NCBI GenBank assembly: GCA_001275005.1
Contig: JWZX01002622.1
Location: forward strand, 1 to 41,761
Source of the DNA: Chrysochromulina tobinii
Taxonomy: Eukaryota
Length of the DNA: 41,761 nucleotides
Reading direction: 5' to 3'
The notes beneath the pieces were generated by a model. The model saw only the letters and a program-made list of their open reading frames with translations, made no database searches and had not been told where the DNA came from. Position numbers and translations under genes: made by a program. Positions 17,549 to 37,140 of this stretch are shown piece by piece (within the stretch, counting starts at the first letter, position 1; each line of letters begins with the position of its first letter).

Positions 17549-19917
17549 TTAGAGCGGGCTGAGCGTCACCCACGGAAAGTGGAAGCAGTCGGGCTGTCCC
17601 TCGTGCGAGAACGTGGCGTTGCTCCGGAGCGTGGACCAGCAAAAGACGGGCTGCTGGTCGTACGTCGGCCCCATGCGCACGTCGACCTCGGGGCCAACGG
17701 CTCGCGATCCCCCCCGGGGAGATGCGGCCGAGATCCCCGAGATGTCGACCTCGGGGCCAACGGCTCGCGATCCCCCCCGAGGAGATGCGGCCGAGATCCC
17801 CGAGATCACGCGAGATGCAGACGAGATCTTCGAGTCGGTCCCCCCCGACGGGTAGACGTCCTTGAGCTCGAGCTCGAGATCGCGACGGCTCGCGATCGCA
17901 TGCGACGGGTTCGCCTCACTCAGCGGATCCACCTTCCAGTTGTTGTACTGCATCAAGTCGCGCATGTCCGCCACCGTCGCGAGGGCGCCGTGGCGGTTTC
18001 GGAAGATGTTGGCGCGAGGGCACGAGTCCCAGCAGGAGTCGTTGTTCGGTGGCGTGGACACGCGCCCTAGCTCGCACGCCGCCGTGTTGCCCGATTTGCG
18101 CGAGATCTGGTCGAGATAGGGGATGTTGTACGAGGCCCAGTAGCCTTCCGCGTTGAGGAACCAGGTGAGGTCTTCCACACCGACCTCGCCCGGGATCTCC
18201 TCGGCGATGACGAAACTCTCGACCGGTAGGTCTTGGCCAGGGGTGAAGCGGCTGAGGTCGAGGATCTGCCACTGGTTCGTGTAGGTGCCTGCTCGGGGAG
18301 GGACTTCTGATGAGGGACACAATCACATGCAATCAGATGCAATCAGCGCACCTGCTGGAGGAGGGACTTCTGATGAGGGACACAATCACATGCAATCAGA
18401 GGCAATCAGCACACCTGAGGCCTCCTTTGCGAAGAGCGTCGCCCACGACGGCGCTGTCGTCGCGAGGGTGTTCGCGGTGATCGCTCGCGCCCAACAGAGG
18501 CACGATCTCGGCGTCACCAGCTCGAAGAGCTCCGGATTGTACACGTCATTAGTGGTCTCGATGACCGCGAGCTGTGCCGAGGCCGAGTGCACGATGTAAA
18601 AGTCGTCGAGCGATGCGAGCAACCCTGGCGAGGACGAGAAGTGCACCTGTGGGGAGAGTGGCAGTAGCGGAGGCGCCGCGGTGAGCACTTGCATGCGCGG
18701 CGGGTGAGGAGCAGCCCTGGCGAGCTCGCAATCTGGCGGCAGGAGCGGAGGCGCCGCGGTGAGCACTTGCATGCGCGGCGGGTGAGACGAGGGGCGAGCT
18801 CGCAATCTGGAGAGACGAGACGTGTACCTGGCGTATCTCCGGCTGCGGAGGCGGCGCGTGCGCGGACAGGTGGAGTAGTACCGGCAGGGAGAGGTGCTTG
18901 AAGGTGCGCGGACCTGTGGGGAGAGAGGCGCCGTGGTGAGCGCTTGCATGCTGGCCTCAGAAGGGAGAGGTGCTCGAAGGTGCGCGGGCCCATGGCCGAG
19001 AAGGAGCTCCAGGTCGTGTACTCAGGGGTCATCAGAGGTCATCAGAGGTCATCAGAGGTCATCAGGGGTCATCAGAGGTCATCAGGACCCATGGCTGAGA
19101 AGGAGCTCCAGGTCGTGTGTGCGAAGAGGACGTCACTCCGGTCCGGCAGCAGCTTGAAGAGCGACGAGCATCGGAGGTCCACTGGGAGCTCCGTCTTTGG
19201 ATAGTACAGTCTCGAGTTGTAGATGGGGCCGCGAGGGTCGAATCTCCGAGATTGGATCTCGGGCTGATGGAATTTGGACTTGATCGTGTACATGTCGCCC
19301 CATGCCTGCACAAAGAGCAGCTTGAGCACGTTCATCCCGGTCGACGGGAGCAGGTCCTCGGCCGTGTACGCGCCCGCCGCCAGCGCACCGAAGTCGAAGT
19401 CGAGGGCGCCGCGCGGGGCTTGCGGGCTCAAGCATGGCGACTGCGCATAGCCCTCAGCGATGCCATGGAGCTGCTCCAGCGTGGACTTGATGCTGAACCA
19501 GAACGCGTCCGCCGCGTGCGCCTCGGCCGCCATCCGCTCCATGTATAGGTAGTTCTCTACGATGAAGCCCACGATGGCCGCCGGCGGAGGGCCCTCGAAA
19601 TTCGAGTAGAACATGTTGGGATACGAGTCGCTGATGCCTTGGCAGGCGAGAGTGCCCTCGGCAAACCCGGCCGCGCGATACACTTTCAGGACATCCTCCG
19701 GCGTGCTCGCGTTCTCGGCCACCGTCTCGACGCTCAGATAGCCCCAGCCGCTCTCTTGAGTGTTGTTCGTGTAGCTCACGGAGACGAGCGCGCCGCTTGT
19801 GGGCCGGACCGCGCCAATCTGTAGGCCGCCGCGGCCGTCGACGTACACGTAGCTCCTGGGGTGCGGCTCGGCGCGCACGAGAGCACAAGATACTGCCGTA
19901 TACAAGAAGGCACTCAT
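17549..19917 (-). CDS. Phospholipase B-like (PLBD / lamina ancestor, Ntn hydrolase); exons 19917-19089, 18913-18828, 18646-18415, 18288-17549 (~628 aa)
   Basis: Signal peptide, SGWGYLSV, AAGFAEG, CSSLFKLLPDRSDVLFAHTTW (Ntn Cys), FSSSPG..SLDDFY, IETTN, SGTYTNQW (restored by splicing), YWASYNIPY, PRANIF, GGTDSK, GPT. All three junctions are frame-consistent. Confidence 0.92.
17681..17806 (-). repeat. 63-nt in-frame tandem duplication in the last PLB exon
   Basis: ISGISAASPRGGSRAVGPEVD x2; units start at 17681 and 17744. Confidence 0.92.
18289..18414 (-). other. Intron made of two back-to-back 63-nt GT..AG units
   Basis: Units 18414-18352 and 18351-18289 are near-identical; removing both restores ASGTYTNQW. 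Confidence 0.88.
18647..18827 (-). other. Intron (181 nt) with exon-like head and two copies of the acceptor cassette
   Basis: CAG|GTACACGTCTCGTC...CTCTCCCCACAG|GTGCACTTCTCGTC; GCATGCAAGTGCTCACCGCGGCGCCTC occurs twice. Confidence 0.85.
18914..19088 (-). other. Intron (175 nt) with CTGATGACCT repeats, an internal copy of the spliced junction and the acceptor cassette
   Basis: ATGG|GTCCTGATGACC...CTCTCTCCCCACAG|GTCCGCGC; splicing gives SAMGPRTFKH. Confidence 0.8.
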
Positions 19918-20120
19918 TGCGACGGACTTGAAGCGGAGACGATGCGCGCAGTGCTTCCAGCCAGGCCGATCCCGAGCCGTCCGCTGAATCCGTCCGCGGG
20001 CGCCTTCGGCCTCTCCGGAACTTGGGCGAGAACGTTCTCGGCAGTTTGGTACGCGAACTACTTGCACCTGTCCCCACGCTCTACCGGGCTTTGCCACGTC
20101 ATTTCGAGCGCTCGCGCGAG

Positions 20121-20966
20121 ATGCCGCGACTCGGCCGACCGCTCGCCGCCCTCATCATCGGCGTGGCGCTCCACGCCTGGGCCGCTCCGTCCGCGGACGA
20201 GCTGCAGGCCTTCCGTGATACGCGCGGCACCATGTGCCGTGCGGTCGTGCGCGAGATGCACATCGAGATCCACAAGCATAAGCTCCGCAAGAACGGCGAG
20301 GACGACATCTACGAGACGGTGCCGGCAATCTGCCTGGCGATCGTGCAGAACTACTCGCTCACGGCCACGGCACCGCCCTCGCGCAAGTGGTCGCTGAAGA
20401 AGCGGGCCGTGCGCCTCGACGATGACGACGCATTGGATCAGAATCCATCCATGATGATGCATCTGATCACGCTCAAGAAGGCGTGCGAGCACTTCACCGA
20501 CGACTTCCAGCAGGAGCTGTCAGAGCTCATGTACCGATCCGCGCTGCTGCACGACATTGAGCCGATCGTGTCCGAGTTCTGCGAGTCAGATGTGGTCGTG
20601 CAGCCGCCCAAGCCGCCGCCATCGCCGCGCAAGCGCGTAGTGGGCAGCGATGGCGGCGCCAACGGCGGCGGCAGCAGCGGCGGCAGCGGCAGCAGCGGCA
20701 GCGGCAGGAGGCTGAGCAGCGACACGAGCAAAACCAAGGACAGCAGCAGCAGCAGCAGCAGTAGCAGCGGCGGCGGCGGCGGAAGCAGCAGCAGCGGCAG
20801 CAGTGGCAGCAGCAGCAGCAGCAGCAGCAGCGCCCGTAGGAAGTCGAGCGCCAGCAGCGCAGGCGATCGGTCCGACACGGACGGCGGTGGGCGCATGCCC
20901 GATATGGCCGAGCTGCTCAAGCGGTTCGACACCGACGGTTCGATCTCGCCGGCGGAGAACCTCTGA
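20121..20966 (+). CDS. Secreted saposin-like (Canopy/MZB1-like) protein with Ser/Gly-rich tail; 3' end uncertain
   Basis: Signal peptide MPRLGRPLAALIIGVALHAWA and Cys spacing CRAVV...ICL...LKKACEHF...EFC. The ORF runs into the 10-nt repeat array, so the stop codon may be intronic. Confidence 0.6.
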   Translation: MPRLGRPLAALIIGVALHAWAAPSADELQAFRDTRGTMCRAVVREMHIEIHKHKLRKNGEDDIYETVPAICLAIVQNYSLTATAPPSRKWSLKKRAVRLDDDDALDQNPSMMMHLITLKKACEHFTDDFQQELSELMYRSALLHDIEPIVSEFCESDVVVQPPKPPPSPRKRVVGSDGGANGGGSSGGSGSSGSGRRLSSDTSKTKDSSSSSSSSSGGGGGSSSSGSSGSSSSSSSSARRKSSASSAGDRSDTDGGGRMPDMAELLKRFDTDGSISPAENL

Positions 20967-21586
20967 TGACCTCTGATGACCTCTGATGACCTCTGATGAC
21001 CTCTGATGACCTCTGATGACCTCTGATGACCTCTGATGACCTCTGCTGACCTCTGCTGACCTCTGATGACCTCTGATGACCTCTGCTGACCTCTGATGAC
21101 CTCTGATGACCTCCGATGACCTCCGATGACCTCTGATGACCTCTGATGACCTCTGATGACCTCTGATGACCTCTGATGGCCTCTGATGACCTCTGATGAC
21201 CTCTGATGGCCACTGATGACCTCCGATGACCACCGATGACATCGGACGACCTCGGATGACCTCTGATGACCTCCGATGACCTCTGCTGACCTCTGATGAC
21301 CTCTGATGACCTCTGATGATATCTGATGACCTCTGATGACCTCTGATGACCTCTGATGACCTCCGATGACCTCTGCTGACCTCTGATGACCTCTGATGAC
21401 CTCTGCTGACCTCTGATGACCTCTGATGACCTCTGATGACCTCTGATGACCTCTGATGACCTCCGATGACCTCCGATGACCTCCGAAGACCTCTGATGAC
21501 CTCTGATGACCTCTGATGACCTCTGAGGACCTCTGATGACCTCTGATGGCCTCTGATGACCTCTGATGACCTCTGATGACCTCTCA
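20958..21586 (+). repeat. ~62 copies of a 10-nt satellite (CTCTGATGAC)n
   Basis: Directly visible tandem array with variants CTCCGATGAC and CTCTGCTGAC. The same unit occurs in introns at ~19020-19086 and ~35286-35345. Confidence 0.97.
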
Positions 21587-21615
21587 TCACCGTCGCCGCG
21601 CTTCGTGTACAGCAC

Positions 21616-21740
21616 GCAATCAGGTGCAATCAGGTGCAATCAGGTGCAATCAGGTGCAATCGGATGTAATCAGGGGAGCCAGCTGGGCGCGGAGCACCTG
21701 CCAATCAGGTGCAATCAAGTGCAATCAGATGCAATCAGGA
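21616..21740 (-). repeat. (CTGATTGCAC)n 10-nt repeats in intron-like context on the minus strand
   Basis: Plus strand shows CAGGTGCAAT repeats; minus strand reads G|GTCCTGATTGC...GATTGGCAG|GTGCTCC. Confidence 0.75.
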
Positions 21741-21861
21741 CCGCATCGCTGCACGGGCTACCCGGTTGGCATCAGGACGCCAAGTTGGGGCCTGTGTGTG
21801 TGGGGCACGTGTTAAACGCGTTTACACGCATTTTTAAAGATAAAAGCGTATTCGCAGCCTA

Positions 21862-22122
21862 GTACCCGCGTATACGCACCCCTGCCTGCGTATACGCACC
21901 CCCCGCGTATACGCACCCCTGCCTGCGTATACGCACCCCCCGCGTATACGCACCCCTGCCTGCGTATACGCACCTACCCGCGTATACGCACCCTGGGGTG
22001 CGTATACGCACGTACCTGCGTATACGCACCCACACCCGCGTACAAGCACATGTGCGTAAACGCGGCGTCGGGTGCGTATACGCACCTACCTGCGTATACG
22101 CACCCGACGCTGTGTATACGCA
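21862..22122. repeat. Minisatellite with palindromic core GCGTATACGC (~17-20-nt units)
   Basis: About 12 copies of CGTATACGCA with CCCCTGCCT-type spacers. Confidence 0.92.
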
Positions 22123-23063
22123 GGGACGCGACGAACGTCATGGGCGGTCCGCGAACGTACCGCGAGCGCCGGACCACTTCAACACGCTGTGAGGAATTGA
22201 TTAGTCCTGCCGCGTGCTCTTGCGTTGCCACGCCCCCTGCCGCTGCCGCGACGCCCACCGCCGTGCCACGCCGGGCTGCGGCCGCACGTTTTCAAAGTAA
22301 CCCTTGTCCCTCTCCCAAACGGGGGGGGGCGGAGGGGGACCGCCCCCCCCTCATAGGGAGGCGTCCACGACGTCGATCAACGACGCCCCACTGCAAAGTT
22401 TATTGCAAAGACGAAACCTCGCACTGGCCAACCCACAACCCGTCGGGAAAGCGGGGTTCGATGGTGTGGGTTCTCGCACGCGCCCGTTCGTAAGGGGGCC
22501 GCGTCTGCCGTCTCGGGTGGGGTCGTGTCAGCGTCAACTTTGCAGGCCTCCGTACCATATTCAACACCCGGTAAGTACGCGCCCATCGCGTTTGGTTGGC
22601 GGGGTTTTTAGCTTTGAACGCGGTCTGCCGCTCAGCGGGGTCCCAGCTCGAGGTCCCAGCGGTCTCGGCCCGGCCTCGGGGTGCGTGCGCGCGGTGTCGC
22701 TCCGGTCGTACCGCCGAGCGCCGACCGGTACCGCACTACCGCTACCGGCCGTATCGGTCCCGGCGGAGGGGCGGAGGGTCACCAAAAGAAAACTTTCCTA
22801 TCAGTCTGCCGTGCTCTCAGCCGGCTCTATAGTAGACGTTCCCACCGCTCCACCAGCACCACTGTGAATGCTCGCGGCCCCCTCCATATAGGCCCGTACC
22901 TTGTAACAACCGTGCATGTTGGCATGCGCATAGAACTGGGGCGCCTCGGGATAAATCCCACATGTAACCACTGTGCATGCGGGCATGTGCATGCATCTTG
23001 GGTTCCCAGCACGACGTGTCTCGAGGCGCCCGGTTCGCCACCGCGCCCGCTCCCGGCCGCCCC

Positions 23064-23153
23064 GCTTCCTCCGCTTCCTCCGCTTCCTCCGCTTCCTCCG
23101 CTTCCACAGCTTCCTCCGCTTCCACAGCTTCCTCCGCTTCCACAGCTTCCTCC
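23064..23153. repeat. 9-nt microsatellite (GCTTCCTCC / GCTTCCACA)
   Basis: Direct tandem array. Confidence 0.9.
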
Positions 23154-23238
23154 GCCCTCGGCCATCAACAGCCATCTCCTCAGGGATGCGTCCGCGGGCG
23201 CATCTGGATCATCCGTCCCTGGTACTCGGTCTCGTTCA

Positions 23239-24258
23239 TTAGGGATGCGCATCCGGGCGCACCTGGATCGTCCGTCCCTGGTACTCGGTCTCGTTAAACA
23301 ATTGAATGGCCTTGGCAGCCTCGCGTGTCGAACCGAGCAGCACAGTCCCGTAACCCTTACTTGTTCCATCGGGCGCCTGGGCGACGTCCGCACGAACGAC
23401 CGAGCCCGCCTCGCGAAACATGTCCTTAAGATCCATCCATGTCGTCTCCCGAGGCAGACCGCCCACGAACACTTTGCACCCGTCGGTCGGCGCCACTGCC
23501 GAACCGCCGCGGCCAGCCATGCCGACGCCAGCGCCGCCCTCGCGGTCCTCGCGCACGAAGATCAGGCGGCCGTTCAGCTCGGTGTCGTGCAGCGTGCTGA
23601 TCGCCGTGGCCGCGTCGCGCGCGTTGGCGAATGTGACAAGGCCGCACCCCTTGGAGCGGGTGGTGCCAGGCTCCATCATCACGTCCGCATGCAGAACCTG
23701 ACCAACGGTCTTGAAATGATCCTTGAGGTCCTGCCACGACACGTCCCACGCCAGATTGCCAACGTAAACGGAGGCGCCGGCGCCAGCGGCACCGCCCCCG
23801 CCGCCCTTGCCACCGACTGCGACAGTGCCAACATCGGTGCCAGCATCGCGGTCCTCGCGCACGAAGATCAGGCGGCCGTTCAGCTCGGTGTCGTGCAGCG
23901 TGCTGATCGCCGTGGCCGCGTCGCGCGCGTTGGCGAATGTGACAAGGCCGCACCCCTTGGAGCGGGTCGTGCCAGGCTCCATCATCACGTCGGCATTGAG
24001 AACCTGACCAACGGTCTTGAAATGATCCTTGAGGTCCTGCCACGACACGTCCCACGCCAGATTGCCCACGTACACCGACTTGCCACCCTGCGGTTGAGCG
24101 CGGCCACTGCCCTTGCCCGCGCTCTTGGCTGCGGCATAGGGCGCTGGCCGGCGAATGGCGCGGGAACTGGCAGAGACTTTTCCTGGACCACCGCCCTTAG
24201 CAGGCCGGGACGATCCCCTCTTCATGAGTTGGTCCAGCGACATGTCCAGCGCGGACAT
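23239..24258 (-). CDS. Three-RRM RNA/ssDNA-binding protein (GBP2/HRB1/hnRNP M-like)
   Basis: RNP2 VYVGNL (x2) and VFVGGL; WQDLKDHF; RNP1 SKGCGLVTF / SKGYGTV; GRLIFVREDR; N-terminal LDMSLDQL resembling the ALY/REF UAP56-binding motif. Confidence 0.92.
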   Translation of the reverse strand: MSALDMSLDQLMKRGSSRPAKGGGPGKVSASSRAIRRPAPYAAAKSAGKGSGRAQPQGGKSVYVGNLAWDVSWQDLKDHFKTVGQVLNADVMMEPGTTRSKGCGLVTFANARDAATAISTLHDTELNGRLIFVREDRDAGTDVGTVAVGGKGGGGGAAGAGASVYVGNLAWDVSWQDLKDHFKTVGQVLHADVMMEPGTTRSKGCGLVTFANARDAATAISTLHDTELNGRLIFVREDREGGAGVGMAGRGGSAVAPTDGCKVFVGGLPRETTWMDLKDMFREAGSVVRADVAQAPDGTSKGYGTVLLGSTREAAKAIQLFNETEYQGRTIQVRPDAHP

Positions 24259-24882
24259 CGTGATTAGCTGCAGTGATTAGAGCAGATGCAGAATCCGTCC
24301 GGTAAGTCTCTCCACATTGACACGTCACAGCGAACCAAGTGAACAGACCGGGGACCCCGTGATCAAAACTCGACACATAGTTCACCGCCAAGTTGTGCAT
24401 TTGTTGTGTGAATGTGTGCATGTGTGTCTATTATGTGATTTAAACAGCACACGGAAACACGGGCGCTCAACAAGGGGCGCTCAATACATGTCCTTGATAC
24501 ATGTACAAGTACCGGTACACCAATTGATACATACATTGTTCATGAACAGCAATGTCTGAGCGGGCAGTAACAGTGCCGTTGCACACCGGTTGTCGCGTGT
24601 GGCGCGTAACGTTCAGACGAAGCTTTTGGGATGCGCAACATCATCGCGCCAAGTAAGTCGCCAAACACCCAAACTCCGGCTTCGTGCTGCCCCCCCAATA
24701 TTCATTTTTCTAGGGCCCCACGGATCCGAAAGGGAAAAAAGATACGGTCTTCACAGCCAAGGGTTGATTTCTTCACACGCCGCGGACGAGCGCGGAGAGA
24801 AGAACTGGAGGAAGCTTTTTCACGGAGGGGCGGAGAGAGGTGCTTTTGTCTGCCTTTCCGAGAGCCTTTCGGTGTTCACGAA

Positions 24883-27800
24883 ATGGCGGGGCGAGACGTG
24901 GACGAGGATCTAGAGGCAGCCATTGTCCGCCTATCCGAGGCAGCGCGGCAAACCGCCGCTCCGCTCACTCAATTGGCCACCAGCACCCGCAACGAGGTGA
25001 CGGACTGGAAGCAGGCCGCAGGGCGCACCGACGGCAAAGAGGGCTACCAGTTTGGTGACGTGAGCAGATCACTCCTCAAAAGTACCACAGAGTTGGTTGC
25101 ACGCACCAAGGAGAGGTTCCAACCGGAGGACACAGACTCCTCGTCGGCGGCCACCAGCGCCGATCCGTCTATTGGCATCGCCAGCACAGTCGCGCGCGGC
25201 ATGGGCCAGCTCATTGGAGCGTCCAAGGGCGTGATCACGGCCACGGCACTGGGCATGGTCAAAGGAGGCGTCGCACTGACCGACCGGCTTTACGAGAACT
25301 CGGCAAACCAACTGGTCAACGAAGATGTTCGCGAGCGCTTCCAGAGCCGCATCGGCTTCCAGGCGGGCGCAATCGCCGCCGAGGTGGCGCCACTTCTGGG
25401 CAACATCGCGGCGGCATTCTTTCAGGGCTCGCTCGAGGGCCACGCGGCGGCGCACGGAGCTCTCGCGAGCGCGTATCAGACCGTTGTTCCCGTAGAGGTG
25501 CAGCTCGACATGCAATGTCGAATCGAACAGCGGCTCGGTGCTGTGATGGAACACCTCGTCGAGCCTGCAGTTCTCGAGGCCCTCTCGAGCTTTTATCGGA
25601 GCAAGGTGAAACCCCAGCTGATAGACGATTGGTGGATGCCCGACTACGTACGGCGTGCGGCTCACGAGGTGAGTGATCAGATAGCACATGATCTGATGCT
25701 CGAGCTACCTAATGGGCTGAACATGCTCGTCGGGACTAATGCAGAAGTGGGTGGCGGCCGACGAGCCAAGCCTATGAAGAGTTCGACCGCACCGCCGGCC
25801 GCCGCAGCCGAACAGGCGCCGCCGCAGCTGCCGCAGCTGCCGCCTCCGCCGCCTCCGCCGCCTCCGCCGCCTCCGCCGCCTCCGCCGCCTCCGCCGCCTC
25901 CGCCGCCTTTCGCGGAAGCACTTTCAGCTGTGGAGGCGCCTTCGGCTGTGGTAGCGCCTGCGGAAGAAGTGCTCCTCAGAATTGATAGCTTCATCAAGGT
26001 GGATGAGCAGTACTTTGAACAAGCGAGCTCAAGCTCAGCTGGAGGCACCCAGGCAGCAGGTTCGGTTTCGAAAGCTCCTGGTTCTCTTTCTACAGAAACA
26101 GCTTCACTCCCCCAAGAAAAGCAACGTGACAGTACATCCGGACGTCAGGCGCCTCCGCTGGCGCCTATCGCTGTGGCGGCGCCAGCGGAGGCGGCTTTAG
26201 CTGTGGCAGCGCCTGCCGCTGCGGAAGAGCCTGCTGGAGCTCTTTTGGACCGCCCAGCAGAGCGTCCAGCACCAACCACAAAGACTTGGCGCGAGGCGGT
26301 CGGTCGAGAGAGTGGACGCGACGGTTACGTCTTCGGCGATCTGGCCCGCAGCGTGGTCGGCCGTCTGCGTGGAGACGCCAAGCTGACGGGTACGACGGGT
26401 ACAGACGGGTCACCATCTCGTCAGACTGCCGGGACCCGGACCGGTACCGGTACGGACGAAGAGGTCGTCGACCCAGCGGTGGCGGCGCAGCTTGCAGAAT
26501 GGCGGCGACGTACGGCAGCCGCTAGTGGTGCCGTTTCGGGCACTTCGAGTCCCCACGCCAGCGACACGCCTACCCCGCCACCGTCCCCTCCGGACTCGTC
26601 TGCACCAGTGAATGCACTATCCGAGCCCGATGGCTGCGGCTATGCTGCCTCCGAATGCGCAGCCTCCGAGGCTGAGGAGGCGCCCTCCGAGTATGCGCCT
26701 GACAAGGCCCCAAGGATCGCGTTGTCGTGGGCACCAGGGCCCGCGCTCGACCCTGTGCTCATGGGGCCCCCTTCTGCCGCCCCGACTGCCGCCGCCCCTT
26801 CCACCACGGCCACGACGGCCTCGATGGGACACCGCTTACGAGCGGCGGGCCTGCACGTGCGCGCGCGCCTCCTGTACGCGCACCTGCCCTACCTTCCCAA
26901 CCTACCCTACCTGCCCTACGACCGCTACCTGCCTCAGACCGCTGACCTGCCCTACCTGCCCACAGGTACGCGTACCTGCCCTACGACCGTTCCACCTGGC
27001 AAACCATGCAATCTCCGTCGTCGCTCGCGATCATAGTCCTCGCTTCGTGGCCTTCGTGGGCGACGCGCACCATCTTCTTCGCCGTGCTGCTGCTGCTGCT
27101 GCTGCTCGACCTGGACGAGTACCAGGTGATTGAGCTTGATGGGTGTCGATGACCTTGATCGACCTTGCTCGACCTTGCTTGACCTTGCTTGACCTTTCAT
27201 ACCATTGATGGTGAATGCCACTGAACCTGAGCGCTTGCATGCATACCATTGATGCCGTGTGAGCATTTTGAATGCCACTGAAGCTGAGCGCTGGATTGCG
27301 CTGGATTGATCTGGATCGCGCTGGATGATGTCTGATGAGGCTGAGCGGTGCGGCAACCCGATCCTTCGCGTCGTGCAGTTGATGCAGTTCATCATGGCGC
27401 TCAAGGGCGCTCAGTTTGTGATGGGGCTGCTCCTCGCGCTAGAAGGCTTCTTGTTCTTCTACCACTGCGCCGTGCTCTCCGCACCAAGCAATTGCGACGA
27501 GGCGGGCCCGGGCGTTGGGCTAGGCGTCGGGCTGCAGGTGTTCTGGCAGCTCAGCCTCCAGCTGCTCACGTGGCTTGCCTTTGGGCTGCTGCCCTTCTCG
27601 TCGCAGTGCGGAGAAGTCACCCAGCTCGGAAGGCAGGCGCGTCAATCACAGCTTGCGGAGCGTAAGTGGCGCATGGCCGAGAAGCGCCGTCTCGAGCGCG
27701 AAGAGAAGGCAAGGGCAAAGGGCCCGTCGGTGGTTGCGCTCAGTAGGCTTAAGGGCCAGCTGCCGTCCTCCTCCTCCTCCTCGCAGCAGCAGCAGCAGCA

Positions 27801-29693
27801 AGCGCGTGCGTCCGACACGGCCTCTGTCTACTCTGACTCCACCTACTCGAGTGCTGTCACGAGCGCCGCTAGCAAGGCGCCAGCTGGGCCGGGGCCGGCC
27901 CAGGGAGGGGCGAGGCGGGCTGGAGCGAGCGGAGGCGGTGGCTACATGCAATCTCGAAGTCATCTCGGAGGCGGCTACATGCCTCTTGTCGACGAGGAGC
28001 CGGTAGAGGATGCCGGGCTCGGTTGGTTCCAACGAGCCTTGGGGGAGGGGGCAAAGCCGGCAGAGGATGCCGGGCTTGGCTGGTTCAAACGATCTGTTGT
28101 GCCTGTAGACCCCCTCCTCGTCAACAATGTGGGGGAGGAGGCGGAAACGCAAGGGCCGTTCGAAAGCTCCGAGCCTGGAGCCGAGCCTGGCGAGCTTCCG
28201 GATGGCGCCGAGATGGGCGCGCTCGTGTCCTCGGCGCTCTCCAGCCCGCGTAGCTCGTCGAGCTCGACCAATCTCGGAGTGATCTCGAACGGCTCGTATG
28301 CGAAGCCCCCCCCGAAGGGCTGGAGGCCCGTACAGGCGCGTGAGCCTGATGATGCGGATCATCGGATTCCATGGGTGGAGGGGCTGACAAGGGCGGACGC
28401 GGCCGCCACGTCTTCGGCGCATGCCGCCACCAGTGCGGCGTTCCCGGCGCTAACGGTCGACGAGCCCGTGCCCTCCGCAGCCGCCGCCGAGGGCACACTC
28501 GAGAGTTCCCAAAGCTCTTCCCACGCCGAGGGCACATTCGAGTCGGGGAGGAGGCAAGGGTCGGCGCCGAGCTCCTCGGCTGCATCTGCAGCCGGCTCGT
28601 CGGCTGCGATGGGCTCCTCGGCCTCGTGTATGTACCAGATTGGACGCGCCATCGCGCAGGTCTTCGGCTTCACGGCGCGTGACAACTTCGCGACAAACCG
28701 ACTCCTCTATCTTCTCAGCTGGGACATGTTCGCCTTCGGTGGGTGCGCGTCTGTGTTCGCACTGCTCTTGCTCATGCTGGCTCAGCAGTCGGCGAGCCTG
28801 CAACCCGATCGCAACCTGACACTGCCGATCGTGCTGCTCTCACCTTCCTTTTATGGCTCATGGAGAGTCGAGATCACCTTCTTCCTGGTGCGGCTCGTGT
28901 ACGCACTCTCAGCGCTCCCCTTTATGATCTTTCACCTGCCTTTTGTGCGCGACCTCCTCTCGCACACTTTCGCGACGGGCTACACGAAGCGCGGCGTGTG
29001 CGTCGCCTACGATCGGAGCGGCCTCAGCGCCTTTATAGAGTGGCTCGATCAGTTCCTCCAGCTGCCAGCGGCTCAGGTACTTAGCACCAAGGAGCGCGCG
29101 AAGATCGAGAAAGCCCTGACTGTGGCGCGAGAGTGCCTCGTGGACGAGGATGGCGGCGAGCTCGAGCGCCCGCCGCCGAAGCAGGTGACCACGCGACATA
29201 GAGCGGACCTCATCAGTGCGCTCGAGGCGATCGTGCCGCCCACGCACCCGCTCTTCCCACAGCTCTTTCCCGAGCGACAGATTTGCCTTGAGTACGCGGA
29301 GCGCGTGCGTCACGAGGCGGCCCGTAAGCGCGAGGGCGCTGTGAAAGCGGCCCGGAGCACGAGCCAGACTGCGTTCAAGAGCTGGGAGGAGCACCAGTCT
29401 TCCAAGTATGGAGAGGCGTGGCAGTCTTCCTCGCGCATGCAACTGCTCACTACGGCGCCTCTCCTCCCCACAGGTATGGAGTGGCGTGGCAGCGCGACAG
29501 CGAGGCGACCAACTGCACGCTGTGTGACAGCGCCTTCCACCTGCTTTTGAGGCGGCGCCATCACTGCCGGCTGTGCGGTCGGCTCGTTTGCGACCCGTGC
29601 TCCAAGTCGCGTCGTGTGCCACGTGGCAGCAGCAACAGTGCGAAGCCCGAGCGTGCATGTGATCGATGTGCGCAGGACACTGAAGACGCATGA
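24883..29693 (+). CDS. Large multi-pass membrane protein with C-terminal FYVE finger; exons 24883-26873, 26966-27125, 27379-29405, 29474-29693 (~1465 aa)
   Basis: Three frame-consistent GT-AG introns join the ORFs (LLYAYLPYDRSTW, DEYQ|LMQFIMALKG, SSKYGVAWQRD). Several hydrophobic segments. FYVE motifs WQRD, CTLC, RRHHCRLCG, VCDPC, RACDRC. Confidence 0.82.
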
Positions 29694-30429
29694 CAGTGAA
29701 GATGCGATGCGATCGTGGATGCGAAGATGGAGGCGGCGACGTCCTTGGCCTTGCGCCTTGCTCACGTACACGTCCCGCATCTTGGACGGCGGCAGCCGAA
29801 CGACGTGAGCGATGAAAGTGCTGCCGCGCGCGCCCGCCGCGGGTCAGAACTAAGTTACCCGCTGGACCAACTTTTTGATGGACCAACTTGTTGGTCTTTC
29901 GATCACCATACGTCGCCATTGAATCCTCGCGCGCGCCTCCCGCTGGCAGGCACACCGAACGCACCCCCACGCACACTATACAGTGCCCCCAAACCCGGCC
30001 GTCGAGCCCCTCGCGGCCTCGTTTCTCAATTCTTTCTCTTGGTATGAATGACGTCGATTTGTACTCGTTCATCCTGGGAGAGTCCTCGGTCGTGTGTGAC
30101 CTGACACCCGCGTGTCGATCCCTAACCCTCCGCTCGGTCCGGTCGAAAGTCGATTTTCGTTTGGGGGGTGGCGCCGCGGAAGGCGCTATGCCCCGTACGG
30201 CCTACATGCGCTATACACTGTTAATACACTGAACACGGTTTGTTATTCAGTACCGTGAGAAGCGAAAGCAGAAAACATTGCAGTCAGCACCGCAGAACGG
30301 TCCCAGCCGAACATAGCTGCACAGGTACGCATCTGCTGAAAGTAACCTGAATCGCTCCGTTCTTGGCATCGAGCGCTGAGATATCCGCTGTCGACCCGCC
30401 GATTGCGAGGAGCGTGGCAAGCCACTGTG

Positions 30430-32634
30430 TCAATCTGCCGGTTCGGCGGGCTGATACGCGAGTTGCACGTGGAAGACCCACGCGCATGAAGCTCGGCCAA
30501 GATCCTCTTCCCGATTGCAAGAGGCAAGAGTGCTCTTGCCGATGCCTTCGCGCCCGCTTTTGTGAGCTTCCTGTGCAAAGGACGCCTCAGCAGACCCACG
30601 AGGCACGACTCGCCAAGTACGCTGGCATTCTGCACAGTAATCAGGCTCGGGGTCACCTGCGCGACGACGCTTGCAGCTGAGCGCCTCACGCACAGCGTAG
30701 TTCATGCGGTTGTGTTGGTGCACAACAGAGATTGTAGCGTTGCGCATGTTGAGCACCACGCCGCGATGGTTGAGTAGGACATCTCGGCCGATCCTCATGC
30801 CTGCAGCGCCCGAGATGTACACCTCGTCGTATTGTAGCACACGCACCGGCACTGGGCGTGGCTGCCGAAGAAACTCGTTGTAGAGGAGCCAGATGTGGAT
30901 GCCTTGGTCGTAACCCTTAGCGAGCATCCAATTCTCCGTCTCCAACCGCGGAAGCCGTGGCACCAGCAGCCGATTGACCTCTGCGGCCATCCTCTCCAGG
31001 TACAAACTCATGCCTGTTCGCCGCCCCATCGTGTAGCCCGACGTGCTGACGTTGCGCATGCTGATCTGCTCGAGGCTCTTTCTGCCGTACAAGTTCACGA
31101 CCCAGTACTTGTTGCCGTGACTGCGGCCAATAATGTCCTTGTCGTTACCGAAGATGAGATCATCTTCGGGACCGATGCGCACAAAGGGATCCGCTTGGAA
31201 GACCACATCCGAGGCGTCGCTGACTGCCACCTTGTAAAATGTGCGCCCCTCGGGCCCTCGGAGATAGTCGGCGTACACATTGTACCGAAAGACTTGCGTG
31301 AAGCGCGAGTGGTTGTAGGAAGCAGGCCAAGGAACCAGCTTGATACGAGGATGTGGTGGATTGAAGACGGACACGGCCGAAGCTGGCCGAACAAAGAGCA
31401 CGAGAAGGGCATCGGGCACGTGCTTCAAGAAGGAGCAGATGAAGGGCAGGAACCTTGAGGGTGGGAAGCCGTCAAAGCTGACAGTGGCAAAAACTGCGTT
31501 TTGCATGGTTGGCCTGTCGTTGACCACGGTGCCGAAAACGAGAGCATCGTCCGGCTTTTGTTGGCCGGAGCGACGCCCCTTTCGAGTGGAGCGGTTCGGC
31601 ATGAGCATCTTGTCAAAGAGCTCGTAGATCGCAGCACGTTTGAAAATACGCGCAGGAGCGAATCGGTCCCCAAAAATGCGATGGCGCTCGGCGGCCAGTG
31701 CCTTCCGCTCAGCGGAGCTTAGGTTCGCAATTTGCCGATACGCGATAGCAATGCCCGTCAGGTTATCCCGTGTGATGTTTGCAAAGGTCAACAAGCCTGC
31801 GTACGCGTTCTCATCCTTGGGATAAGCGCGCTCGGAGATGACGAGGCCACCAGCATTGAGGATCTTGGTCACACGGAAGGTGATGGGGTTGTGCGGGTCG
31901 CCGCAACCCTTGTGGATGTTCAGAAAGATGTCGTGCTGCTGAAGCAGTTGCGCGTATTCTGCCTCGGTCCAGACGTCATCACGCCTGTACAATCCGTGGT
32001 TCCCGAGTAGGTCCGGCGATGCCAAGTGCCGAATGCACCAGTAGCGAGCTATGTAACCCATGTTCCGCGAGAACGAGCCGAGGAAGAAAAGCGGAGGTGG
32101 CAGTTGCGGGTGCCCCACCGAGTGCTTCACCGGCAGTGCTCCTAGAGGGACCCAACGTTGCACCGGCGCTTGCAAACTGCGCCGACAAACATCGATCGTA
32201 TGCCATGAAAAGTCCCATATCTCGTCGACAACATCACTCCTGAAAGCGCACTCATGCAGCGGCTCAGTTTGGTAAAAGACACTGAAAACTCTGCGTCGTC
32301 GCAGATTGGCCCACGGAACGTAGCGACGTCCAGCCTCGCCTACCCAAATAAAAAAGTCGCCGCGTCGCGTGATCTTTGACGCATTGGCGATCTCCTCAGC
32401 CGTAACGCTAGCATATGAGAAGCGGATGTTGCTCAGCCCCGCATATTGTTGCACGCCTGCAACCAAAGTCGACACCACCGGCTCGTAGATGGAGGCGAGC
32501 TTCAGATTGTGCCGACGGACTCCACGTGCCGACCATATGATCAGCGCCGGCGCGTCCGGCGTGCTCGCGAGTGTCGGCGGCGACATGGTGAACGCCTCCG
32601 CGCCGCGTCGAGTCCAGGCACGACCCTCCGCCAT
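30430..32634 (-). CDS. Putative two-domain glycosyltransferase-like protein
   Basis: 734-aa ORF. The N-half has YQTEP...FLNIHK...FRVTKIL..GGLVISE (GT-B-like C-terminal signature). The C-half has SDASDVVFQADPF, DQGIH and HQHNR (GT-A-like DxxD/DQG). Confidence 0.6.
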   Translation of the reverse strand: MAEGRAWTRRGAEAFTMSPPTLASTPDAPALIIWSARGVRRHNLKLASIYEPVVSTLVAGVQQYAGLSNIRFSYASVTAEEIANASKITRRGDFFIWVGEAGRRYVPWANLRRRRVFSVFYQTEPLHECAFRSDVVDEIWDFSWHTIDVCRRSLQAPVQRWVPLGALPVKHSVGHPQLPPPLFFLGSFSRNMGYIARYWCIRHLASPDLLGNHGLYRRDDVWTEAEYAQLLQQHDIFLNIHKGCGDPHNPITFRVTKILNAGGLVISERAYPKDENAYAGLLTFANITRDNLTGIAIAYRQIANLSSAERKALAAERHRIFGDRFAPARIFKRAAIYELFDKMLMPNRSTRKGRRSGQQKPDDALVFGTVVNDRPTMQNAVFATVSFDGFPPSRFLPFICSFLKHVPDALLVLFVRPASAVSVFNPPHPRIKLVPWPASYNHSRFTQVFRYNVYADYLRGPEGRTFYKVAVSDASDVVFQADPFVRIGPEDDLIFGNDKDIIGRSHGNKYWVVNLYGRKSLEQISMRNVSTSGYTMGRRTGMSLYLERMAAEVNRLLVPRLPRLETENWMLAKGYDQGIHIWLLYNEFLRQPRPVPVRVLQYDEVYISGAAGMRIGRDVLLNHRGVVLNMRNATISVVHQHNRMNYAVREALSCKRRRAGDPEPDYCAECQRTWRVVPRGSAEASFAQEAHKSGREGIGKSTLASCNREEDLGRASCAWVFHVQLAYQPAEPAD

Positions 32635-33545
32635 GTTGTCGCCTCTCCGCGGAACAACGACGCCAACGACTGAGCAAACCCCGCATCTGTTCTTCCTATG
32701 TCCCGGCTCCCCCCGGTGTCGCCCCCGGTGTCGTCAGCTCGTCACCTCTTTGCTAATCTTTCAATGCCGGTTTGTGCCGTGAAAAACAGCATGCGCTTTA
32801 AAACTCAGTCCATATTACCATATTCGATGGTGCTAGTTCAATTCGCGTTAATATGCGGGTCGTCCGGCGGGTACAGCGATGAAGTGAGAGTACAGGAGCG
32901 TATACAGAAACTGCTGTCTCGGAATTTGGAATCTGTATTTTGTCTTTCAATTTCCAAATCGCAGGGCGAGGTGCGCAAGTTGGATTCTGCATGGCGATAT
33001 CTGGATCTTGAAATCTGTCCAGGTTCCAAAACCCGCGGCGAGGCGCGGAATCTGGATTCTGGATGGCCCGCGCCGGTTCTTGGAAACTGGTAACTGTTCC
33101 CCCTTGTGTTTTGAACCGGTACCGCTCCTTTCTTGGGAACTCGGAATCTTGGAAAGTGGAAACTGCGATCACTTTACCGGTACTGTACCGTACGCCGCGG
33201 GGTATCCTTTACCCTTACAGTACTGTACATAGCGTACTGTACGGTACGTCGTACGTGTGTCCTGTGCGTGCGAGCATGCCGTCCCGGCTTCCCGCCGAGG
33301 TTTCTTCTTTCTTGACCAATTTCTTCTAACAATCTAAGTTCTATGTCAATCCGGTAAGTTGAATTTTAAAGTCGTTGAATGCGGCCGGGGACTCGAGGTG
33401 AACACGAAACGAAACCGGACACCGTTGAAACACCCGGGCATGAACACTCTTCATAAAGCCGAACACCCACCCACAGGTTAGAGGTTTTGATTGGGGGTCA
33501 CCCACAGATGCAAGGCGCTTCCCAAAAGGTCAGCCAGATGAGACA

Positions 33546-36500
33546 TTAGAAGACAGTCTGATGTGAGCTGAGTCTGTCAGTCGACAGGCGCTCGGACGAA
33601 ACGCGCTCCGACGACGGGCGCTCTGACGAAACGCGCTCCGACGACGGGCGCTCTGACGAAGTCCGACTGGACGAGGATTTGGGGAAGGCAGCTTCGAGCA
33701 TGTCGCTCGTCGACAGCCCCTTCCACTGGTCGAGCCGGTTGCTGTCGAACTCACCGAGGATGGATTCGTGAGCTGCGTCAGGCACTGCGCAGTGTTCGAA
33801 GTTGAGCTTCCTCTGGAGCACGAGGGCTCTGGGACCTGCCCGAGACGTGCACTTGCTGCTGGGTGCCGGGGTGCTGCACTGTGCCGTGCCTTTCTCGGAG
33901 TCGGATACGGAGGACTGCCCACCGTCGGCGTCAGCAACCTGTGCGAGCGTCAAGTACTGTTTTCCTTTCGCCTTGGCCGCACTCTTGGACGGCTTCAAGG
34001 CCGACTTGGGCGTGAGCTCCGAGGACGAGATCGATGAGGTTGACGAATGAGCCCCTGGCAGTCTGGACGGGGTCGAGATCGAACCTGGCGATCTGGAAGG
34101 GGTCGAGATCGAACCTGGCGATCTGGACGGGGTCGAGATCGAACCTGGCGATCTGGACGAGCTGGTCCCTGGCTGGCGTGACGTAGATGGGCTCTTCGTC
34201 TTCTTGAGGCGTGGAGTCCGAGAGGCCTTGAGGCGAGCCGACTTGAGCCGGGCGGTTTTGAGGCGGGCCGACTTTGAATGCTCATGCAAGCTCGTGATGC
34301 TCTTCGGGGGTGATCGTGCCCGCGCTTGGGCCGCTTCCACAGCTGCCTGGATCACGCTCAGTTCCTCCTCTCGTCTGGCGGAGCCGAGGCGTGCGAGCTC
34401 GTCTGCTTTGGACGGATGCGGCAACTGCGAGCGCCATGTGGGCGGCGCCCGCCCCTCGCGCTTCAGGTGGCTGAGCACACGCGTGGCCTCCTGCACACAG
34501 GCCTCATAGACGGGGTTACGGCTGTTCTGGTTGCCGGCGCCGGTGGCCTCGTTGAGAGCGCGAAGGAGCTGTGGGGAGAGGGGCGAGGCTCCGATTTGAG
34601 CACTTACACACTTACATGCAAGGCTAGGGCTTGGGGGTTGAGGGCAAAAAGGAGGAGCTGCGCGCACCTCCGCCGCCTCGGCGGTGGAGTAGCCGAGCCA
34701 GAGTCGCCCTTCTCGAGAGGGCGAGCGGGAGGGCGAGCGGGAGGAGCGTGCGGCCCCGCGTGCCGTCCCACGAGAGGACTGTGGGGAACGTGCGGACGTG
34801 CTCGAGGGGGAGCGCCTCGGCGGGGTGACGAACTCGAACTCGGTCTGGGGTTGATCTTCATCTTGTGGAGCCGCCTTACGGAGTGCCCCGCCTTTGCGCG
34901 GCGACGACAGATTGGTCGGCACCCAACTCGGCGCCTCAGTTGGCCCTCTTGGAGCGAGCTCGAACTGAGATCGCTCCTCCTCCTCCTCCGCGTCCTCCCA
35001 CTCTTGGCGGCCGTGCTCGGGCCGAGGATGGAGTGCCTTCGTAAGCGCCACGTGGGCATTCTGCATGCGCCGCTCGGGGATCACGTGCTCAGGCTCCTGC
35101 TTGCACGGGTGCCAGCCCAGCCAGCCTTCGTTCCTCGCGTCTCTCAGGTTGCTGAGGGTCTGCCGGTCCAGATCGCGTCTTCGAGCGTTCATCTCTTCGA
35201 GCGTCTCCTTGGCCTTGGCGCGCTCTTCCTCCGTCACTCGCAGCACACTCTCCAACCTCGCTGCCTTGAGAGCGGCCTGTACCTGCAATCAGAGGTCATC
35301 AGAGGTCATCAGAGGTCATCAGAGGTCATCAGAGGTCATCAGAGCTCTCCAATCTCGCAACCTTGAGAGCGGCCTGTACCTGCAATCGGGGGGAGGCACT
35401 CCGTTGCCATCAGAGACAATCAGGGGTGGCCAACAGACGCAGCCAGGGGCCATCAGAGGCCATCAGAGGCACTCCGAGCTGAGTGTACCTGCACTGGATC
35501 AGATGAGAGCTCGGCGACGGCGAGGTGTGCGCCCGTCCCGGCGCCCGTCACCGCCGTCACTGTGGGACTTCCGTGGTCAACGCTCGGCCCGCCCGCTTTC
35601 AACGCAATGTCGAGCGGCGACGCGCCCCACTTGTTCTGGATCGCCTTGTGGGCCCCATGATGCAGTAGCGTTCGGATCACGGCAGGGTTGTTCTTGCGAG
35701 CGGCCTCGTGAAGAGCAGTACTCCCATCGACGCTGACGAGATTGACGATCTCGACGCCGAGATTGCTTGCGAGCACGAGCAACGCGTTGCACACACCGAG
35801 GTGGCCTGCTCGCACCGCGTAGTGCAGCACGCTCAAACCGTACATATCCACTGCAGTGAGCACCTCCTTCGCGCTTGTATGGTTGCCAAGGCGGCCGCTG
35901 AAGCTTAAGACGAGGTCTAGAACGGGCAGCTTGCCGCTCTTGGCCGCCCAGTGCAGCGGCGTCTGTCCCAAGGTATCGGTCTGAGTCAGCATCTCCCCCC
36001 TCTGGGCAGGCCCGGCACTCTCGAGGATCTGACGGAGCGGTTTGAGGTGCGTTCCGGTGCGCATGCATAGCCACACGAGCAGCTTGCGCCCCTCCCTAAT
36101 ATGGGCAAGCATGGCTCGCCAGGTGTTGATCGCACGCCGCGGGGCAATACCGAGGAAGGCGCTCGCCGCTCGCCTCCGCGCACGCACTTTTCTCATGATC
36201 TCATTCAGGCCGGCCCAAAACCGGCGCGCGCCCCAAATGTATTCTTGCACTTGCTTCACCTTTTCAAGCTTGGCCACCAACGCGCGCTTCTCCTCGACCA
36301 ACTTGAGCCAGCGCCGCACGAGGTAGCACCTCTGATGATGCCGATCAGCGCGGTCGAGCATACTCTTGACTCGCAAGAGCTCCCTGAACCGCTCAAGCGC
36401 CTCGAGCTTCGCCGCACCTTCCGGGTCGACGATTCTGCGGAAGCCATCGCGCAATCGCTTGCGCTGGGCGGCCAGCTGCATGAACTCGACCCGCCACTTG

Positions 36501-36778
36501 TAAACCATCGCCCACTTGAGGACGAGCTCTTGCGCACTGCGTATCATCGATTTCCACTGCGTTGAGAGCTCCGCCCATTCTCCAAATGCTTTCAGTCCTT
36601 TCGCTTTCGCCCTCGACTTGTAGTCCCATCCTGACGCCCGCATACGCCGCTTGCCTTCGGTGATGTGGGCAAACATGCTCTGCCATCGACGCAGACGAAT
36701 GCGGGCCTCAAACCTGGCGGGCTCGTCAACGAAGAGCCACCATCGGATCGAGGTTGAGCATTGAGCTGCAACTTCCAT
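33546..36778 (-). CDS. Ankyrin-repeat protein with helical W/R-rich N-terminus and Ser-rich tail; exons 36778-35489, 35282-34668, 34568-33546; 5' end possibly incomplete
   Basis: Ankyrin motifs GQTPLHWAA, GLSVLHYAV, GSTALHEAA and GASPLDIA. Phase-0 introns at 35488-35283 and 34667-34569. Confidence 0.78.
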
Positions 36779-37140
36779 TATCCGTCGAAGAGCGAACTCC
36801 TTGGAAGAGACCTTATGGCACCTTCTGCCACCTTAGCAGGGCGCGCTTCGCGATGTTCGTCGCGGTGAAACTTGAAACTTGAGCAGAAACTTGAAACTTG
36901 GGGAGGTTAGTCAGATTCAGTGAGATCCGTGTGTACCGTGCCCCGTTTTTTTTGTTTCAAAAACACCGGTACATGTAGGAGGCAGACACACGAACCTGCA
37001 ACCTCAGAACCAACCCCAGAGCCCAGACGCCACCTTCGACACCGACTCACGCGCCAGGCACCCGTATGTACAAAACCCTGAGGCCCCGGCCAACCTGAAG
37101 AGTGGTGTTGGTGAAACGTGTGCTGTCAGTGTGTGATTTC

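Follow-up and report, generated by a model that had tools for sequence, protein, structure and literature searches.

The stretch analysed here comprises the 41,761 nt of contig JWZX01002622.1 from Chrysochromulina tobinii, a freshwater haptophyte of the parva/tobinii group, and is referred to as the window. A cytochrome b561 encoded in the window has a 99% identical match, and the 90% cluster to which this match belongs contains a protein labelled Chrysochromulina parva. Three unrelated genes, identified by Pfam search as FYVE-domain, ankyrin-repeat and phospholipase B-like, host introns whose 5' part, hereafter the head, is a copy of the beginning of the downstream exon (Table 1). A first-pass annotation, made from the sequence, had proposed that in these introns a duplication of coding sequence starting with GT supplies the donor, and that an inserted filler ending in CAG supplies the branch site and the acceptor, leaving the protein unchanged. 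The head/exon matches that it reported were found at the indicated places, with 18/19 identities at both 29406 and 26874, 32/35 at 35379 and 12/14 at 18827. In the last case the window copy is split by a later insertion, and the copy in a related record, L024 (L numbers denote surveyed loci), matches in 27/30 columns.

Table 1. Genes and introns of the window that bear on the head-copy introns.
Feature	Coordinates	Strand	Description
Phospholipase B-like gene	17549..19917	-	Three introns, 628 aa spliced; Pfam PF04916 on three pieces
Intron of two stacked 63-nt units	18289..18414	-	Head without exon copy; RNA joint
Intron, 181 nt	18647..18827	-	Head copies next exon; two F1 cores; later insertion; RNA joint
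Composite intron, 175 nt	18914..19088	-	Inner 18989-18914: F1 filler behind a 28-nt exon copy
FYVE-domain gene (domain at end)	24883..29693	+	About 1465 aa after removal of three introns; predicted start
Intron, 92 nt	26874..26965	+	19-nt exon copy; repeated pieces of that copy; CTGAC branch-like site; CCCACAG
Intron, 253 nt	27126..27378	+	10-mer repeats; inner 24-nt duplication; head copy not clear
Intron, 68 nt	29406..29473	+	19-nt exon copy; short repeat of upstream exon end; F1 filler
Ankyrin-repeat gene	33546..36832	-	Pfam Ank; hosts introns 34667-34569 and 35488-35283; predicted start
Older F1-type intron, 99 nt	34569..34667	-	Degenerate filler; faint exon copy
Intron, 206 nt, ankyrin-repeat gene	35283..35488	-	Unit 35379-35283 stacked behind older part 35488-35380

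The 3' parts of the introns ending at 29473, 18914 and 18647 have a common core, F1, of the form GCATGCAAGTGCTCACCACGGCGCCTC ... CCCCACAG. A second family, F2, consists of arrays of units of about 10 nt, such as CTGATGACCT, ending in CTCATCAG. Specifically, the outer 99 nt of intron 19088-18914 form an F2 array that includes a 34-nt duplication, an insert not present in L024, and the stacked unit 35379-35283 joins a 35-nt exon copy to an F2 array. The insertion within intron 18827-18647 matches an intron/exon junction of another gene (L040/L048). At 26874 the proposed duplication was confirmed, and the filler proved to belong to no family, being mostly made of re-copied fragments of the intron's own exon copy; at 29406, too, there is local re-copying, a few bases of the upstream exon end being repeated ahead of the F1 filler.

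Splicing was checked against six RNA runs, all in the form of contigs; two further runs (X20 and X21), nearly devoid of matching words, were not used. Intron 18827-18647 is skipped exactly, over 181 nt and with GT..AG ends, in X16, X18 and X19, and X17 also skips 181 nt with the joint displaced by a few bases (4/4 runs overall). In the same gene, the 126 nt of 18414-18289 are skipped in 4/4 runs and the 175 nt of 19088-18914 in 1/4 (X17). The splicing of 26874-26965 was likewise confirmed: record 25 of X17 leaves the window at 26873 and re-enters it at 27376, and the 157 letters inside this gap equal the length of exon 26966-27122. Record 9 of X14 also exits at 26873; moreover, record 25 of X17 bridges 27126-27378 and record 28 of the same run bridges 34667-34569. 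For intron 29406-29473 the support is indirect, with record 25 of X17 stopping at 29413, the end of the head/exon identity, and record 12 of X14 beginning at 29474. Neither 29406 nor 35488 gave a direct joint row, because the joint tables were swamped by F2 repeats.

Frame tests gave concordant indications. Keeping any one of the phospholipase B-like introns leads to an early stop, and the fully spliced model of this gene is 45% identical to P0001 across 620 columns. When kept in the message, 26874-26965 stops the frame, as does 29406-29473, in the latter case ahead of the FYVE domain. At 35379 the exon copy stood, but the free intron did not, since the head adjoins an older acceptor at 35380. 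Removal of the 35379 unit alone or of 35488-35380 alone breaks the frame, and only whole or two-step removal keeps it; therefore, the intron is 35488-35283, with indirect support from record 14 of X14, which begins at 35287. An assembly artefact could be set aside at the sites tested: DNA run X1, which may be the source sample, spans 26300-29473 without difference, its record 2 crossing 29406-29473 unbroken, and a 98.6% identical record from a separate assembly carries the 18827 and 18914 copies.

To place these introns in a wider frame, metagenome contigs were pattern-scanned for the F1 core, yielding at least 128 loci (813 kb, including the window and one locus from a viral contig) that collapse to 53 regions and 468 kb of non-redundant sequence. 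The single viral-contig match, L001, overlaps L076 and is probably algal DNA filed as viral. After exclusion of 37/167 matches that lacked an acceptor call or a flank, a strict motif with a copy threshold of score ≥10 gave 41/58 distinct sites preceded by a copy of the start of their exon, compared to 9/3296 shuffled pairs. With a relaxed motif, and after removing same-site rows (1 for F1, 5 for F2), such a copy precedes 67/107 F1 acceptors (shuffled pairs 3/1539) and 38/78 F2 acceptors (shuffled pairs 5/1063). An excess of head/exon identity over shuffled pairs, the comparison that had been suggested for the whole genome, is thus present in the 128 F1-selected loci. Similar F1 and F2 introns occur in unrelated genes across the 53 regions, and read depth at both families suggests high copy numbers, the depth figures being no counts. 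All together, these introns are real, spliced, recent and frequent.

The exon copy measures 12-60 nt, with a median of 28 nt for F1 and 21.5 nt for F2, so that the duplication of the initial proposal stands and its range of 15-35 nt has to be widened. Fillers measure 23-98 nt and F1 introns have a median length of 77 nt. In introns below 110 nt, duplication and filler lengths are anti-correlated (rho -0.59 for F1, -0.56 for F2), so that intron length stays near 70-90 nt, a steadiness that may reflect a splicing length limit and is partly an effect of the method. Among 50 clean F1 cases, 47 end in CCCCACAG, while the 5' starts of the filler vary: no common 5' end was found, and 5' extensions of the filler are common only to small sets across the at least 128 loci (Rfam: no match in the window). 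The copy is perfect in 24/50, with an overall copy/exon mismatch of 39/1449 (2.7%). A G precedes the head in 43/50, against a 29% background, and an AG in 26/50; 11/50 heads directly follow another acceptor-like end. Terminal inverted repeats (TIRs) were detected in 0/50 F1 fillers and 2/24 F2 fillers. Thus, as initially claimed, these are neither TIR-type introners nor pure tandem duplications, the acceptor being supplied by the filler; and RNA joints, frame tests and the survey of the 128 loci bear out the GT-starting duplication as the source of the donor, just as splicing and frame tests do for the CAG-ending filler and the unchanged protein.

Some further comparisons were discarded. A drift of head mismatches towards the donor consensus was not supported either for F1 (9/256 at +3..+6 versus 39/1213 beyond) or for F2 (5/144 versus 21/597). 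A de novo triplet scan was dropped as a statistic, since control triplets also gave many matches by finding the same repeats in other registers. A shuffle control of the window, with 8 matches compared to 0 in 30 shuffles, is weak because plain tandem repeats account for several of these matches.

The filler itself turned out to have a source. The inserted filler of the first-pass annotation was retained with this amendment: as judged by sequence similarity, it is the end of an existing intron, often a neighbouring one in the same gene. For 24/85 F1 sites with a regional partner (permuted mean 3.3, maximum 10.5 in 1000 permutations) and for 28/69 F2 sites (permuted mean 5.5, maximum 15.3), the closest filler by similarity comes from the same region. 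In a distance-binned analysis computed before duplicate removal, the same-strand F1 pairs in the top 1% of similarity amounted to 26% of 31 below 1 kb, 6% of 31 at 1-3 kb and 0/32 at 3-8 kb. Furthermore, F1 introns with similar fillers have more exon-start bases in common (3.9 versus 2.9 nt, with ≥5 nt in 22/70 versus 351/3011), an effect reached in 0/2000 nearest-neighbour permutations.

Some introns, which we call daughters, also bear bases that belong to the site of another intron, their putative parent. An anchored test on 83 F1 introns found 5 daughters with bases that stem from the exon copy heading another intron (null mean 0.43, maximum 3 of 200), two of six pairs being doubtful. L018 and L028 are equal in 63/64 terminal bases, including 15 from the exon of L028, the first 5 of which match the exon of L018 too. 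In L086, two neighbouring introns about 460 nt apart have 7 exon-start bases in common, and one of them bears 10 bases from the other's exon copy. L003 and L010 bear bases of the head of L025, and L123 those of the L092/L122 head, 1 kb away. A more complex exchange links the phospholipase B-like gene to L040/L048, which contain the first ~78 nt of its intron (74/78 compared to L024): the head of this piece is a copy of the phospholipase exon, and the piece is closed by a 10-nt copy of the upstream exon end of L040/L048. Reciprocally, the 18827 intron of the window contains a piece of the L040/L048 junction; the upstream exon piece of the L040/L048 gene was not found in the window.

Overlapping records differ in length at 28 places. 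L022 is without the whole L086 daughter: the site is single-copy, the filler is gone, the flanks are 97.5% alike and the other introns are present, and the same daughter, if left unspliced, brings an in-frame stop. L048 is without one mirror-form intron of L040, the mirror form being one in which the duplication supplies the acceptor, a class that has to be added to the donor-supplying duplications originally described. Conversely, L024 has an insert at the 18827 donor that is not in the window. The presence/absence comparison that had been suggested, carried out between overlapping records, gave a clean empty exon site at 1/40 testable head-copy sites. Of seven "empty" flags, six concern stacked units, and these were left out of this count. 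The two L023 introns missing from L127 and the L072 intron missing from L027 were counted neither as empty alleles nor as splicing, since those records could be RNA.

Of 249 long direct repeats separated by a spacer, 163 enclose an F1 or F2 filler, the copies being arranged as heads, as tails or internally. Within 2 kb, 1224/1288 pairs of F1 and F2 marks have the same orientation, compared to 632/1227 at 4-10 kb. Plain duplications of 12-33 nt are also abundant (56 versus 0-3 in shuffles), and 47/56 are multiples of three. Stacks of exon copy plus filler units occur in L012, L025, L036, L064, L125 and at 18289-18414 of the window. They give AG/GT sites without an intervening exon, and the unit number differs between records; their arrangement makes them candidates for recursive splicing. 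On the forward strand of the window, about 62 copies of the F2 10-mer occupy 20959-21584, after the last long frame of a gene; since this gene, as found in L024, contains a short F2 filler together with an exon copy, the array may be a recently expanded intron.

Introners that take the 5' splice site from a target duplication are described in Symbiodinium and Polarella, classes 4-6, 8 and 10 (PMC9860276; bioRxiv 2020.10.14.339549). As in those, the C. tobinii insert provides the acceptor and the duplication the donor, the message is unchanged, and many related copies occur in unrelated genes. The logic of one site from the duplication and one from the insert is thus already known, with duplications of 3-9 bp (PMC9860276); the distinction that the first-pass annotation drew from TIR-type introners still holds. 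The described duplications are fixed in length, many elements have TIRs, and similarity extends to both intron ends, whereas in C. tobinii the duplication of 12-60 nt makes up a third or more of the intron, TIRs and a fixed 5' end are missing, and the introns descend from other introns, often neighbours. Against the definition of Gozashti, one splice site is carried and one co-opted, with precise removal, but similarity to both exon-intron boundaries is lacking, since the 5' part is a site-specific exon copy and filler starts vary; equally lacking are the short, fixed 3-9 bp target duplication and the TIRs of DNA-transposon introners. On these sequence features, the introns are introner-like in their working but not in their ends, duplication length or TIRs.

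Haptophyte introners are themselves on record, in marine Chrysochromulina metagenome-assembled genomes and as family fam24 of E. huxleyi (screens of PMC9860276 and PMC12130899). The latter, with 5 copies in a haptophyte like C. tobinii, is annotated "10bp terminal direct repeats, co-opt 5' carry 3'" (PMC12130899); the marine Chrysochromulina family that is figured brings its own 5' site and duplicates 4 bp (PMC9860276), and is set apart by this description. In the tabulated results of the 2025 screen of 8,716 genomes, C. tobinii GCA_001275005.1 has 0 introner families, and the method as outlined there demands similarity up to both intron ends (PMC12130899). The published screen would therefore miss head-copy introns, and as a demand for similarity at both intron ends hides this class from such screens, its members may be common in other genomes and underestimated in number.

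Other routes of intron gain offer partial parallels. Daphnia pulex neointrons, ascribed to staggered double-strand breaks, have 4-12 bp repeats and a mostly unknown source (PMC4202315); they likewise show an exon direct repeat at the far intron end, nested later events and presence/absence alleles, but the C. tobinii repeats are longer, and the fillers form families and come from other introns. Intron transposition by reverse splicing (PMC3443670) also yields new introns resembling existing ones, yet it predicts whole-intron copies without duplication, whereas half-introns with long duplications are found here. In AGGT tandem genomic duplication (PMC3443670), duplicated exon sequence again gives a splice site; there both sites come from the repeat and no filler is involved, whereas here the filler supplies the acceptor and AG stands before only about half of the clean F1 heads. 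Repeats of 4-30 bp near the borders are also described for 213 mixed introns (PMC11782384). In the openly readable literature searched, which did not include the C. parva genome paper, no description was found of long-duplication introns copied from neighbouring introns.

Starting from the duplication, its splicing, the filler-intron matches, the local bias, the parent-derived bases of some daughters and the one empty allele, we propose, with guarded confidence, that these introns, which combine 12-60 nt copied from the insertion site with an intron-matching piece, arise by templated, microhomology-guided repair of staggered breaks, of the polymerase theta type, that copies existing introns. 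Nicking, annealing, copying, rejoining and fill-in would proceed as follows. Two offset nicks would leave 3' overhangs, and an overhang ending at G/GT would anneal to the CAG/GT junction of a donor intron, present as DNA or nascent RNA and mostly in the same gene. About 40-70 nt would then be synthesised backwards through the acceptor and the branch site, after which a few matching bases would let the newly made end rejoin the other overhang, and fill-in would duplicate the overhang. The first copy, starting with GT, would then act as donor, so that splicing would restore the message; and as each new intron again precedes a GT, it could serve as the next template. Mirror forms, inserts inside introns, stacked units and plain in-frame duplications would persist when harmless, and the long repeats would also permit deletion or stacking of units. 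Such a scheme would account for the varying length of the duplication and the raggedness of the 5' end, for parents that are local and leave bases in their daughters, and for the mirror and scrambled forms.

Templated insertions are a mark of polymerase theta. Local templates, microhomology at the junctions (the exon-start effect concerns F1 only) and iterative copies, as expected of that enzyme, are all found here. Elsewhere, breaks with 3' overhangs yield tandem duplications and templated insertions, and review passages and one cited title connect the insertions with polymerase theta (PMC8355091, PMC7407515).

Several points weigh against the break-repair proposal. Among the duplications described in mouse cells, most depend on CST and non-homologous end joining rather than on polymerase theta (PMC8355091). 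The nearest filler is non-local at 61/85 F1 sites; the exon-start effect is not present for F2 (2.5 versus 2.66 nt); besides the doubtful anchored pairs, an unanchored 11-mer search for parent exon bases gave noise (65 pairs versus 113-216 in controls). Co-orientation within 2 kb is explained as easily by RNA templates or selection. Clean empty sites are scarce, and deletion between repeats gives the same allele, so that the polarity of gain is not proven per site; in addition, since the loci were chosen for the F1 core, the fractions obtained are not genome-wide. Finally, the combination of a fixed 3' end, a variable 5' end and a variable duplication would suit priming by a retroelement equally well.

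In that alternative, which we consider possible but unlikely, an endonuclease and reverse transcriptase of the type of long interspersed nuclear elements (LINEs) or Penelope-like elements (PLEs) would nick the target and prime on the CAG/GT junction of an intron RNA or on an excised intron, copying 40-70 nt; a second nick 12-60 nt off would make the duplication, and the introns would be introners resembling short interspersed nuclear elements. The geometry is that of the break-repair proposal, and for the head-copy class the near-constant CCCCACAG end, ragged 5' end and variable duplication fit it, as do the sense orientation of the fillers and the same-gene bias, which suits a tethered nascent RNA. 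LINEs and PLEs are described with variable, even very long, duplications (PMC9977147), and introners of the non-long-terminal-repeat type exist (PMC12130899). However, no A-rich or simple-repeat tail was found, the ends being CCCCACAG or CTCATCAG with the F2 arrays upstream of the end, and among the at least 128 loci 5' extensions are shared only within small sets, with no clear sign of a common longer element; moreover, fillers behave the same whether they belong to either of two unrelated families or to none, mirror and internal copies are without the fixed 3' end, and plain duplications of similar size arise without any filler. A different kind of mobile element, an HUH element of the Replitron or Helitron type, would move a short element with fuzzy ends by copy-paste from the flank of the parent. 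Replitron-1 of Chlamydomonas gives variable duplications, inserts behind RG and carries bases from the flank of the parent copy, and for C. tobinii there is a report of one Replitron protein (PMC10288648). This resemblance notwithstanding, we regard it as very improbable: Replitron-1 is described as a defined element, 0.9-3.6 kb long and bearing terminal direct repeats, that is under-represented in genes and makes no introns, and in the families covered by that account such signatures were found in no other Replitron (PMC10288648), while here neither a terminal direct repeat nor a fixed second end was seen, and several unrelated fillers and a local bias were.

The introns could also be old ones remodelled in place, by a tandem duplication over the acceptor with later loss of the old 5' part and no new position. 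The heads that stand directly behind an acceptor-like end, 35379 included, are as expected from this, unit number varies between records, and the empty alleles could be losses; but 39/50 heads follow sequence without such an end, the new filler in stacked cases read by eye is often unlike the old acceptor, daughters bear bases from other sites, and another record is entirely empty at two sites, which leaves remodelling quite improbable. As to assembly artefact or chance, short-read assemblies of a repeat-rich genome are a reason for caution, but copies that diverge from their exons at 2.7% of bases, recur in separate assemblies, are skipped in RNA and exceed the F1 shuffled-pair null make this explanation practically negligible, and it is already refuted at the sites tested.

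Under the break-repair proposal, new introns are likely made when staggered DNA breaks are patched with existing introns as templates, which joins break repair and intron copying among the known routes of intron gain. How new introns originate is a long-standing question, and the current view places transposons behind bursts of gain; gains by break repair lacked an identifiable source, which is readable here, as the daughter matches a parent intron that often belongs to its own gene, with both junctions preserved. A wider claim, on which we stay tentative and put slightly less than an even chance, is that of an element-free chain reaction in which ordinary spliceosomal introns template break repair and introns beget introns by hundreds or thousands. 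If true, intron gain would need no transposon and each daughter would record its parent. The proposal also suggests a mechanism for the proto-splice-site bias (G/GT) and for stacked, possibly recursive, introns, and a culturable alga, public genomes and polymorphic sites make it directly testable.

Other repeats were noted in the window. In-frame coding tandem repeats at 17681-17806 (63 nt), 34054-34159 (30 nt) and 12947-13665 (15 nt) are probably products of the same duplication process. A triple RRM (RNA-recognition motif) protein encoded at 23239-24276 on the reverse strand has a near-identical internal duplication with a period of 306 nt. A non-coding repeat built on the GCGTATACGC palindrome lies at 21863-22122 and at 2743-3140 of L049; a 352-nt insert carrying it is present in L049 and not in L060, and represents a separate mobile element. 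The intergenic repeat at 32726-33440 shows high DNA depth and low RNA cover. On the reverse strand, at 30430-32733, lies an intronless, transcribed frame of 767 aa, lower in GC and without a Pfam match, which looks glycosyltransferase-like by eye only and varies more between runs than its neighbours.

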